DNA of 64,000 bases, from positions 160,001 through 224,000 of the forward strand of contig OZ223270.1 of the NCBI GenBank assembly GCA_965140585.1, in the 5' to 3' direction. Shown piece after piece: positions 49,046-52,266 of this stretch. The notes below the pieces were generated by a model. That model saw nothing but the letters and a program-made list of their open reading frames with translations, was not told where the DNA came from and searched no databases. How positions within the stretch are numbered: the first letter of the stretch is position 1; the number at the start of each line of letters is the position of its first letter. This DNA is from Spirochaetia bacterium (GTDB lineage Bacteria; Spirochaetota; Spirochaetia; UBA9216). The position numbers and the translations under genes are program-made.

Positions 49046-49085
49046 AAAAAAGCCGGGTAGATAAAATTATCAGCCCGGCTTTTTA
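49046..49085. terminator. Bidirectional terminator
   Basis: A-run, AGCCGGG...CCCGGCT stem, T-run. Confidence 0.85.
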
Positions 49086-49101: not shown

Positions 49102-50550
49102 TTATTCGGTAGTGATTGCGATGTTCTTGGTAACAAGATATTCGCTGACAGCTTCAAGTGATAGCTCTTTTCCAAAGCCGGACTGCTTGAATCCGCCGTG
49201 AGGAGCCTCGGAAGCTACAATAAGATGATTATTAACCCATACAGTTCCGAACTCCAGCTTATGTGAAACCCTCATCGCACGGGCAACATCCTTTGTCCAC
49301 ACTGATGCAGCCAACCCGTATACAACATCATTTCCAAGCCTGACAGCCTCGGCTTCATCCTTGAAAGTATTAATTGTGAGAACAGGACCGAAAACTTCCT
49401 CCTGGATAATCTCTGAATCCTGCTTTGCATCTGCAATAACTGTCGGTGCATAGAAGTATCCGCTTCCGAGTTCCGGCATTTTCCGGCCGCCAATAACTAC
49501 ACGGGCACCTGCAGATTTTGCACGCTCTACAAAGCCTGAAACACGCTCAAGCTGCTTTGAGCTTATAAGCGGGCCGACTTCTGTTTCAGGATTAAGCGGA
49601 TCACCGATTTTCACAGCCTCTGCTGCGGCAGTGACAGCCTCCAGCAGCTGCTTATACCGGCTTTCATGAACGTAGATTCTGGTTGCCGCGGTACAATCCT
49701 GACCGGAGTTAAAGGTTCCGCCGAGAACTGCGGTTTCGGCAACCCTTGCGATATCGGCATCTTCAAAAACAACAACAGGAGCTTTTCCGCCCAGCTCCAT
49801 ATGAGTCCGCTTCATCGTTCCGGATGCAAGCTCCATAATTCTCCGTCCGGTTCCGGTTGATCCGGTAAGGCTGACAAGGCGTACTGAAGGGTGTGTTGCC
49901 AGGACTTCCGCCTTTGCGCCGCGCCCGGTTACTATATTAAGAACACCATCGGGAAGGCCTGCCTCCTTTGCAATCTCTCCGAGACGAAGAGTGGACAGGG
50001 GTGTATTTGAAGCAGGCTTCATTATTATGGTGCATCCTGCCGCGAGGGCCGGGCCGATTTTCCAGGCGGCCATCTGAAATGGGTAGTTCCAGGGAGTTAT
50101 CTGGCCGACAACTCCGACAGGCTCATGCCTGAATACATGCGTCATCCCCTTAAGATACTGTCCGGCGGCGATACCGTGCGTATCTCTGGCAAGGGTTGCA
50201 TAATACCTGAAGTTGTCGATTGAATCATGAATATCAACTGCCTTGCATTGATATTCCAGCGGTTTGCCGGTATTTTCTGTTTCGAGTCCGGCAATTTCAT
50301 CGGAGTATTTTTCGATAAGATCTGCCATTTTCCAGATTATTCCGGAACGTTCGGCCGGTGTGCTCTCGCTCCAGGGCCCTTCATAGAAGGCTCTTTCCGC
50401 GGCGGCAACAGCTGATTCAAAATCGGAGGTTACAGCATCGGGGACGCTCTGAAATTTTTGACCAGTGGCAGGGTTGACAACATCAATCCTGTCCTTTCCT
50501 CTGGAGGGCACCCAGCCTCCATTAATCCACAGTTCATAACTGTCTTTCAT
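49102..50550 (-). CDS. NAD-dependent aldehyde dehydrogenase (aminobutyraldehyde dehydrogenase-like)
   Basis: ITPWNYP, ELGGKAP, FNSGQDCTA and EEVFGPV motifs. Confidence 0.9.
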   Translation of the reverse strand: MKDSYELWINGGWVPSRGKDRIDVVNPATGQKFQSVPDAVTSDFESAVAAAERAFYEGPWSESTPAERSGIIWKMADLIEKYSDEIAGLETENTGKPLEYQCKAVDIHDSIDNFRYYATLARDTHGIAAGQYLKGMTHVFRHEPVGVVGQITPWNYPFQMAAWKIGPALAAGCTIIMKPASNTPLSTLRLGEIAKEAGLPDGVLNIVTGRGAKAEVLATHPSVRLVSLTGSTGTGRRIMELASGTMKRTHMELGGKAPVVVFEDADIARVAETAVLGGTFNSGQDCTAATRIYVHESRYKQLLEAVTAAAEAVKIGDPLNPETEVGPLISSKQLERVSGFVERAKSAGARVVIGGRKMPELGSGYFYAPTVIADAKQDSEIIQEEVFGPVLTINTFKDEAEAVRLGNDVVYGLAASVWTKDVARAMRVSHKLEFGTVWVNNHLIVASEAPHGGFKQSGFGKELSLEAVSEYLVTKNIAITTE

Positions 50551-50554
50551 TTTT

Positions 50555-50656
50555 ATCTCCTTTCCAGTCGGGAGGCATTGCTGTTTCCGGCAACACCCTG
50601 TCGGTCAGGACTCCATGTGAGATGAGACTTCATTTAGGAGCGCAGGACTCGAAGAT
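50555..50656 (-). ncRNA. Moco/Tuco riboswitch (MOCO RNA motif)
   Basis: AUCUUCGAGUC..CCUAAA..AUGG..GAC..AGGGUGUUGCCGGAAACAGCAAUGCCUCCCGACUGGAAAGGAGAU; P1 pairs over the SD; matches the motif's AGGG-P4(GAAA)-GCCUCCCG..UGGAAAGG 3' half. Confidence 0.8.
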
Positions 50657-50753
50657 TTGCTATAAATTTATTGGATTTGCATGCATCCGGTCAACACAGA
50701 AATCGGAGAGATAGCGAGAAATCATATTTTTATCAGGAAAACAGGATATTATG

Positions 50754-51474
50754 CTAGGGTGTATATTTATAAAGCTGCCCAGGAGTTACACCGAAACCTG
50801 CCCATTCCCTTACAAAATATGCCGCTCCATCACAGACAATGAACTGACTGTTTCGATAATCCATTCCGTAACCCTCGGGAAAAGAAGCTTTTACTGACCA
50901 TTCTGTGTTCCCGGGAGTCCAGGCATAAAGCTTCTGATTTTCATCCAGAACATATCCGGTTCCATCAATAGAAAAAACCTCGACCGCACCACCCGGCATC
51001 ATCAGGGAGATTAGGAATTGAAACCCATCCGTTTGTTGCAGGATCATACTCGGCGAACTCATGCCAGGATTCAGTTTCTATATCATCGTCCCAGGCTTCA
51101 CCTTTTACTGCAGGATAGTGCCCCCCTCCAGTGTATATCTTATCGCCTATAGCAAAAAAAGCCGGGTCTCTGTAATTTGACAATGCATCTACAGTCATGG
51201 TTTCTTCCAGGGTTTTGTATATCCACATATCTATAAGCGGATCACTTTCATTCTCACCAAGACCGTAATAAATCTCATCTCCATTAACAAAAAGTACAGC
51301 ACTTGAACGTTTAGAGCCGGGGAATGTTGTTTTCTGTTCCCAGAAATCATGATCCAGAGGGTTATCACGATCCACAGAAACGATCACATCGTTTACTGCA
51401 GAAGGATCGAAAAAGTCACAGGAAACAAAAACCATTGCAAGAATTCCGGCAGCAAAGAATATTTTATTTTTCAT
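50754..51474 (-). pseudogene. Kelch-repeat lipoprotein, frameshifted at the A6 run 50972-50977
   Basis: FVSC lipobox; Kelch motifs FPG..R, IGDKIYTGGG, YDPATNGW; the protein continues in another frame (FSIDGTGY..W..KASFP). Confidence 0.7.
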
Positions 51475-52160
51475 CAAGAGCCTCCTGCAGACGTACAATT
51501 TCATTCTCCATACGCGATTCACGCGACGCGAGCCCCCAGGTTATTCCTGTAACAACAGCGGCAGGTATCGCAACATGTAGTGAAATATCCCTTACCGTCC
51601 TCATTAAACGGATATTATCTTCAGCCTCGGTAATCTGCGCTCCAAGGCTTTCAACTTCAGCATCATCAGTTGAAGCGGAATACTCCTGATCAAGAGTTTC
51701 CAGCGCATCGGCTGCAACGTCAAGCTCGCCGCGGTAAAACCATCCGGAGCCGTAACATACAGCTCTCCGGAACTGAAAAGAGAAATTCCGGTATCAGGAT
51801 TGTAATCAAGCCCGGCAAGCCTGTAGGCAACCTCAAAAACCTTATCCTGCATTTCATTTAGGGATTCAAAGGTTATGGCCTCGGCACTGATAGTCCTGCT
51901 GGAACCAACGTCAATCAGTCTTATCGCCAGATTGTAGATAGTCCCAATTGAAGACAGTTCTCCTAAAACAATATTTTCAGCGGCCAGAAGCTTTCCAACT
52001 TCAATTGCGCATGAATCATCAGTACAGCCGGACAATGAAAAAGCCTGAGCCTCAAGAATAGCTTTCATATCGTTATAACTCAGGACAGTAAAAAGATCCG
52101 TCTTAAACAGAGCCGTCTCCACAATACTGCGGCAGGCTGTTGCATCAGCTTTGAAGATAT
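51464..52160 (-). pseudogene. Degraded CsgG-like domain protein with a C-terminal TM tail
   Basis: ILEAQAFSLSGCTDDSCAIEVGKLL..IRLIDV domain lacking its N-terminus; C-terminal part in another frame, ending LQEALDEK* over the next ATG. Confidence 0.6.
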
Positions 52161-52266
52161 AACCAGTTTATTGGAGCTCCCCGCACTTGTCCAGAATTTA
52201 TTTTCTTGATGATTAAAAAGACGGTCTGTCAGGAACCGTGGTAGAATATACCATCAGGAGGCTGAT

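Follow-up and report, generated by a model that had tools for sequence, protein, structure and literature searches.

Why should a riboswitch of the class associated with molybdenum and tungsten cofactors stand in front of an aldehyde dehydrogenase (ALDH) that is free of any such cofactor? The question is raised by a window of 64,000 nucleotides (nt; the whole stretch of DNA analysed) from a Spirochaetia bacterium (GenBank assembly GCA_965140585.1, contig OZ223270.1, positions 160,001 to 224,000), part of a 4.85-Mb metagenome-assembled genome that is 98.5% complete (hereafter G000). On its minus strand, an RNA of the Moco/Tuco (molybdenum cofactor/tungsten cofactor) class, Rfam family RF01055, forms the leader of an ALDH gene, a pairing first proposed in an original prediction made from the letters alone. 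The RNA is probably a translational OFF switch, through which the cofactor-free ALDH is expressed when the tungsten/molybdenum (W/Mo) cofactor runs short. The evidence comes from the motif itself, from the position of the Shine-Dalgarno sequence (SD) within it, from the recurrence of the pairing on ALDHs of other genera, and from the cofactor-dependent aldehyde enzymes encoded in the same genomes.

A window-wide cmscan search against Rfam gave RF01055 as the sole match above the gathering score (50666..50541, minus strand; 64.8 bits against a gathering score of 36; E 2.6e-13, and E 4.8e-15 for the same match in the genome-wide search), spanning model positions 1-135 of 135. In the covariance-model alignment the P3 positions are deleted, as in the P3-less ('Tuco') subtype; P4 reads GGGUGUUGCC-GGAAAC-AGCAAUGCC with a GAAA loop, P2 carries CCUAA...AUGG, and a CCUCCCGAC-UGGAAAGG segment is also contained. 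The class features given in Regulski 2008, namely helices P1, P2, P4 and P5, the P4 GAAA tetraloop and the P2 receptor, are all present, and an unconstrained RNAfold prediction of the leader reproduces the P1/P2/P4/P5 layout. The original prediction had described P1, P2 and P4, one further segment, the lack of P3 and an SD sequestered in P1, and had named the Rfam model as the check; the alignment contains every one of these elements. The usual association of the class with genes for molybdenum or tungsten transport, for cofactor synthesis or for cofactor-using enzymes is seen at the five other copies in G000 and not at the window copy, whose target is the ALDH, and this association, being a property of the regulon and not of the RNA, does not bar membership of RF01055. 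The window thus carries a bona fide P3-less Moco/Tuco-class riboswitch, which makes up the whole 5' leader of the ALDH gene. Weinberg 2007 is reportedly, alongside Regulski 2008, a source for the Moco RNA motif. The locus is laid out as follows.

50689..50694, minus strand: -35 box TTGACC of a predicted sigma-70-type promoter (promoter scan, 9/12 consensus matches)
50665..50670, minus strand: -10 box TAAATT (promoter scan; identical in the sister species G002)
50541..50666, minus strand: riboswitch aptamer, RF01055, P3-less; ~8 nt at its start are shared with the -10 box, and 10 nt at its end lie in the coding sequence
50651..50656, minus strand: P1 5' strand AUCUUC (covariance-model alignment; same pairing in the unconstrained fold)
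50555..50560, minus strand: P1 3' strand GGAGAU, which is the SD (GGAG 6 nt before the ATG); expression platform
49102..50550, minus strand: NAD(P)-dependent ALDH, 482 amino acids (aa), aminobutyraldehyde dehydrogenase (PatD/YdcW-like) subfamily (Pfam, NCBIfam)
49046..49084, (.): hairpin AGCCGGG...CCCGGCU with A-run and T-run flanks; stem 49051-49057 / 49074-49080, read from the sequence

In the proposed mechanism, when the pterin cofactor (here probably its tungsten form) is plentiful, the aptamer would fold and P1 (AUCUUC/GGAGAU) would close. Because the 3' strand of P1 is the SD, closure would hide it and block translation of the ALDH. When the cofactor is scarce, P1 would open and the ALDH would be made, joining a cofactor-starvation regulon with tungstate uptake and cofactor synthesis, and the enzyme would then likely oxidize aldehydes that are otherwise handled by W/Mo-dependent aldehyde oxidoreductases (AOR family). 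The placement of the SD gives the leader an OFF-type platform, from which the direction is inferred by analogy with the E. coli moaA leader, whose SD lies inside P1 and which, according to the main text of Regulski 2008 (PMC2408646), was shown to repress. An ON switch, in which the cofactor would activate the ALDH, deserves almost no credence: no specific observation speaks for it, closure of P1 can only hide an SD that is its own 3' strand, and the leader sequence contains no alternative SD between P1 and the ATG.

The TTGACC promoter of the original prediction was located at 50694-50689 together with the TAAATT box, at a spacing of 18 nt that would put the transcription start near 50658, two bases before P1. 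The promoter scan by itself is non-significant (4 sites, against 2.6 +/- 1.8 in shuffles). In the sister species of the same genus (G002), the ALDH is 96% identical to that of the window and is preceded by a riboswitch of 69.5 bits, and the -35 box marks the exact point at which similarity between the two genomes sets in, the DNA further upstream being unrelated. Across promoter and riboswitch 146/160 positions are identical, and the substitutions in the aptamer all fall in P2, where pairing is kept or improved (G-U to G-C; C-U to C-G). On the far side of the boundary, the promoter in G002 abuts a divergent kbl-tdh operon (threonine breakdown). In G000, ~1.5 kb that G002 does not have (window 50695-52221) are inserted directly upstream of the -35 box, with three minus-strand open reading frames (ORFs; 102, 185 and 172 aa) without Pfam or NCBIfam match. 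At the other end of the gene, the hairpin sits between the ALDH and the convergent ackA; its 16-nt loop is outside the 3-8-nt limit of the terminator scan, which did not list it. It is probably a bidirectional terminator, in which case the ALDH would be monocistronic.

The sole downstream gene, described in the original prediction as an ALDH-superfamily member, is indeed one: the ORF 49102-50550 matches Aldedh (PF00171) with 571.9 bits over profile positions 1-461, and its translation contains the motifs ELGGK and GQDC, which we take to hold the catalytic Glu and Cys. It passes the subfamily model NF010000 (639.3 bits, cut-off 615) and falls below the equivalog TIGR03374 (517.4 bits, cut-off 909.3), so that a substrate cannot be assigned. 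The nearest solved structures, matched over the full length, are 6c43 (E 1.3e-137) and 1wnb (E 5.6e-137). The enzymes E. coli PatD/YdcW and Salmonella gamma-aminobutyraldehyde dehydrogenase (1wnb, 6c43) thus are the best structure matches and share the NF010000 subfamily with the window ALDH, which differs from PatD/YdcW in missing TIGR03374. Gammaproteobacterial relatives among the matches listed at the top are 43-48% identical, with one Vibrio locus at 56%. To our knowledge, no riboswitch has been described on PatD/YdcW-type genes. G000 contains four full-length ALDHs, with a riboswitch on the window copy only. Another of the four (G000:C1:631133-632512, minus strand) has an AOR gene (C1:626923, 621 aa) ~2.3 kb away, and neither member of this pair (G000:C1:626923-632512) has a riboswitch.

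The subfamily score, the gamma-aminobutyraldehyde dehydrogenases as nearest structures, the three riboswitch-free ALDHs in G000 and the divergent kbl-tdh operon next to the G002 gene would also fit a different role, in which the riboswitch represses the ALDH and the enzyme serves a need of W/Mo shortage other than substitution for AOR. Examples of such a need are a shift of redox carrier (NADH, not reduced ferredoxin), the detoxification of one particular aminoaldehyde, or the use of another carbon or nitrogen source. We hold this to be rather unlikely in view of the company that the riboswitch keeps elsewhere, as seen in a survey of its targets.

The survey covered 132 RF01055 matches, 51 from the family (11 genomes) and 81 from a sample of the class outside the family (151 genomes), after removal of 2 sub-gathering matches; the order level adds no genomes, comprising the same 11 as the family. 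The first genes 3' of each riboswitch were typed by Pfam. Leader geometry was measured as the distance between the P1 3' strand and the first in-frame start codon judged plausible, and distances of at most 18 nt were counted as SD = P1.

AOR with or without ferredoxin: 35 of 132 leaders; SD in P1 in 1/35
SBP_bac_8 transporters: 31 of 132 leaders; SD in P1 in 27/31
tupA-like: 27 of 132 leaders; SD in P1 in 13/25 determinable leaders
purB-guaB: 4 of 132 leaders; SD in P1 in 0/4
ALDH: 4 of 132 leaders; SD in P1 in 4/4
MOP/XDH-type: 2 of 132 leaders; SD in P1 in 0/2 (spacer >100 nt in both)
Other first genes: 29 of 132 leaders

Further pairings of motif and ALDH, which the original prediction had proposed to look for, therefore exist in Spirochaetia, and they include non-orthologous ALDHs in two other genera. 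The four ALDH-linked riboswitches belong to G000, G002, G010 (another genus of the same family) and G049 (another family), that is, to three genera and two families, and the start codon follows P1 at 9-11 nt in each of the four leaders. The ALDH in G010 (469 aa) is 32% identical to that of the window and follows a P3-less riboswitch of 61.5 bits; the ALDH in G049 (490 aa) is 38.5% identical to that of the window and 28.5% to that of G010, and follows a P3-less riboswitch of 60.6 bits. Neither has an orthologue in G000, and no neighbours are shared among the window, G010 and G049 loci, which gives no sign of in-place gene replacement. The riboswitch-bearing ALDHs of G000/G002, G010 and G049 fall in different subfamilies, which argues for a general activity over one substrate.

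A further arrangement is that in G049, where the ALDH is immediately followed by a second P3-less riboswitch (64.2 bits), a 916-aa gene and an Fe-S/NAD-binding partner. The 916-aa product passes the NCBIfam equivalog model for molybdopterin-dependent aldehyde oxidoreductase (1112.1 bits, cut-off 1100, with a truncated 632-aa fragment scored). A switch on three ALDHs of different subfamilies, at loci without common gene context, and in one case with an aldehyde oxidoreductase itself as partner gene, speaks against a need other than AOR substitution as the reason for control of the ALDH.

The same recurrence bears on the possibility that the pairing arose recently by chance, a riboswitch copy having landed ahead of the ALDH without any selected function. 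Such an event would agree with the restriction of the pairing to one genus for the window ALDH, with orthologues in G009 and G001 for which the motif was not found in the upstream DNA seen, and with the rearrangement between G000 and G002 of the DNA upstream of the promoter. An accident would however have to explain why two species both retain an intact promoter, aptamer, SD and start codon, the changes between them preserving the structure, why the same arrangement is found on two other ALDHs, one of them in another family, and why 4/4 leaders have the same functional geometry, and we regard it as very unlikely.

Recurrence through a common riboswitch lineage is likely for part of the set, judging from aptamer sequences. 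Those of G000/G002 and G010 are mutually nearest, with 0.91 core identity against <=0.79 to the rest, so that one riboswitch lineage seems to have become joined to two unrelated ALDHs; the aptamer of G049 shows no such closeness to the remaining ALDH-linked ones and is independent. A metagenome scan with the ALDH-linked P4 helix gave 4 matches, three with an apparent P3-like insert (judged by eye), and tblastn found no ALDH downstream of any of the 4. The P4 sequence recurs in unrelated copies and so is not by itself proof of common descent.

One could also conceive of a specialized lineage here, in which the ALDH-linked aptamers had drifted to a new ligand, related to aldehydes or polyamines, and no longer sensed the pterin cofactor. 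Besides the 0.91 identity, a target gene unrelated to Mo/W metabolism and the P5 loop of G000 and G002, shorter by 2 nt than usual, could be read in this way. Against the columns that are >=90% conserved in the 128 non-ALDH aptamers, however, deviations are few: a C-to-U change in the P1 5' strand in 3/4 ALDH aptamers, where pairing with G is retained, a U-to-C change beside the shortened P5 loop in 2/4 (G000 and G002), and one flagged column in G010 that adjoins an alignment gap. The ALDH aptamers score 60.6-69.5 bits, typical of the class, and the G049 aptamer is distant from the others. A changed ligand is thus extremely improbable, and the polyamine metabolite that the original prediction had put forward as a second option finds no favour in the conserved positions kept by four aptamers or in the different subfamilies of the three ALDH types.

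A role for the ALDH as stand-in for a cofactor-dependent enzyme presupposes that the latter is encoded, and in the genomes with the pairing this is so. G000 has one moaA and eight AOR-family genes, of which one is preceded by a riboswitch of its own; G010 has a riboswitch-linked AOR; and G049 has an AOR in addition to the adjacent MOP-type gene. G000 has six RF01055 matches including the window copy. The first of the other five (G000:C6:700013-700190, L019) precedes a tupABC-moeA-moeA/PBP-moaA-moaC-MOSC-mog operon, so that the genome search for AOR, moa and tup genes foreseen in the original prediction returned both enzymes and uptake/synthesis genes. L019 is the only P3-bearing copy in G000, the copies on AOR, the ALDH and the other transporters being P3-less, and its tupA leader has the same layout as the ALDH leader (GGAGAUAGUAAUG for tupA, GGAGAUAAAAAUG for the ALDH). 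With respect to tungsten use, the eight AOR genes are present, the tupA-like gene reaches 240.9 bits with the TupA equivalog model (below the cut-off of 400), and the WtpA-like domain in G000 reaches 101.3 bits (below the cut-off of 242.75). The other copies in G000 precede a ferredoxin and AOR pair, an SBP_bac_8 / Oxidored_molyb-domain / permease system and two FecCD-type ATP-binding cassette (ABC) systems.

Some of these transporters are of interest in themselves. The SBP_bac_8 ABC system (L016:248-5131 = G000:C9:526647-531530, and 30 more loci) is uncharacterised and accounts for 31/132 targets, second to AOR (35); in several genomes it includes a protein that matches Oxidored_molyb weakly, and in G000 a long fused permease. 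It has no NCBIfam model match, and may be an unrecognised uptake system for Mo/W or pterin. The two riboswitch-controlled FecCD-type transporters are at L018:261-3995 (G000:C3) and L017 (G000:C1); one has a DUF364/DUF4213 'heavy-metal chelation' protein, and the other a 440-aa protein whose C-terminal part is weakly WtpA-like (101 bits, below cut-off).

In leader geometry the ALDHs, with the SD in P1, group with the uptake genes, which are expected to be cofactor-repressed, and not with the cofactor-using enzymes. In 34/35 AOR leaders (e.g. G000:C9:227357-227520, L020), a separate strong GGAGG lies 12-30 nt past the P1 GGAG. In this arrangement the P1 sequence may be a decoy, and AOR leaders are possibly ON switches. 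When 27 AOR leaders were folded under constraint, the SD was unpaired with a mean probability of 0.38 if P1 was enforced and of 0.18 if P1 was forbidden; with P1, the SD was more accessible in 14, less so in 2, within 0.1 in 10 and borderline in one; several P1 assignments, made by regular expression, were poor, and the result is a trend only. A reciprocal swap can be tentatively imagined, in which the cofactor, through leaders with the SD in P1, switches OFF the ALDH together with uptake and synthesis genes, and through the decoy GGAG of AOR/MOP leaders switches their enzymes ON; we consider it possible, though doubtful. The side-by-side ALDH and MOP-type gene of G049, each with its own riboswitch, would be the minimal form of such a swap.

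Several observations weigh against a cofactor-sparing OFF switch and keep our confidence in it modest. As to the motif, the folding energy of the leader is ordinary (z = -0.52; 54/200 shuffles fold at least as well), so that the case for it rests on the covariance-model match and not on stability. As to the ligand, the assignment of P3-less RNAs to tungsten, also made in the original prediction, has behind it a published correlation and against it the copy in G049 that is P3-less and precedes a MOP-type molybdopterin enzyme, a misfit to a strict 'P3-less = tungsten' rule; the correlation is from the main text of Regulski 2008 (PMC2408646), according to which direct binding of Moco or Tuco to the class was never demonstrated. 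As to the contrast with the AOR leaders, their opposite (ON) logic is a trend that is not seen in G000, where constrained folding of its own AOR leader gave no effect of P1 on SD accessibility. The pairing is also rare (4/132) and confined to few lineages. The motif was not found in the 249 nt available upstream of the G009 orthologue (74% identity) or in the ~170 nt available upstream of the G001 orthologue (66%), and no RF01055 match is found anywhere in the G009 genome (81% complete). Among the best 80 of 485 loci of ALDH relatives in species-representative genomes, scanned with Rfam at +/-2.5 kb where the contig allowed, RF01055 occurs in one (L021, which is G002), so that the switch does not characterize the clade of the window ALDH. 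As to function, the AORs may work in either direction in vivo, a backup may not be needed in a genome with three riboswitch-free full-length ALDHs, and the ALDH subfamily hints at aminoaldehydes, so the enzyme may act on other substrates than AOR does. What remains of the metal-free backup proposed in the original prediction is a role that the ALDH may well have, to which the eight AORs, the recurrence, the MOP-type neighbour in G049 and the SD-in-P1 geometry all point.

The closest regulatory parallel is the cobalamin riboswitch on metE, where the cofactor-free enzyme is made when the B12-dependent one cannot be served. In both cases a cofactor OFF switch (here a putative one) precedes a cofactor-free isozyme, with the dependent version also encoded. 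By contrast with metE, the window pairing involves another cofactor and another RNA class and is rare and lineage-limited, and isofunction between ALDH and AOR/MOP enzymes is looser, with different electron acceptors and a putative substrate overlap. AOR and MOP enzymes resemble the ALDH in aldehyde-to-acid oxidation and, in these genomes, in being controlled by riboswitches of one and the same class, but have unrelated folds, need the pterin cofactor, and in 34/35 AOR leaders have their SD >=12 nt past P1. Among known RF01055 copies, the window RNA is ordinary in its P1-P2-P4-P5 layout, its P4 GAAA, its CCUAA/AUGG receptor in P2 and an SD in P1 as in moaA, but its gene encodes neither a transporter nor a cofactor-synthesis protein nor a cofactor-using enzyme. 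The word 'dehydrogenase' has 0 occurrences in the main text of Regulski 2008 (PMC2408646), the supplements and the alignment of Fig. S4 being outside this search, and in the open-licence full-text literature no paper was found that pairs the RF01055 class with an ALDH or with a cofactor-independent isozyme. Taken singly, the class of RNA and the logic of regulation are known; their combination is new within the literature searched.

Other targets and arrangements turned up in the survey. In four genomes of a sister genus, purB (adenylosuccinate lyase) and guaB (IMP dehydrogenase; 542 bits, cut-off 481.5) are found behind RF01055: L135 (G010; e.g. L135:35-1792), L141 (G005), L145 (G006) and L150 (G008). 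The leaders have a terminator-like hairpin (GCCCGC...GCGGG and a U run) after the aptamer, and the genes start 163-175 nt past the end of the Rfam match; a plausible purpose is control of GTP supply, since the pterin cofactor is made from GTP. In L217 (G031:C195:8-160 and 165-307), tandem RF01055 aptamers 4 nt apart precede a ferredoxin-AOR pair. A 50.9-bit match in L247 (G049:C184:20338-20457) has a methyltransferase 109 nt downstream, and a weak 38.5-bit match in L176 (G005:C6:128859-128980) precedes a 302-aa protein of no family and a metallo-beta-lactamase-fold protein.

If the riboswitch does spare the cofactor in this way, the 'sparing' logic known from metE would extend to the molybdenum and tungsten cofactors, and in anaerobes under tungstate limitation ALDH would go up and AOR down. 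There would also be indirect support for what P3-less RNAs sense: their ligand resists direct biochemistry because the cofactor is unstable, and ALDH targets would be the first physiological argument that these RNAs report usable cofactor. The split in leader geometry between ALDH and transporter genes on one side and AOR genes on the other would offer a natural set of constructs on ON switches within the RF01055 class.

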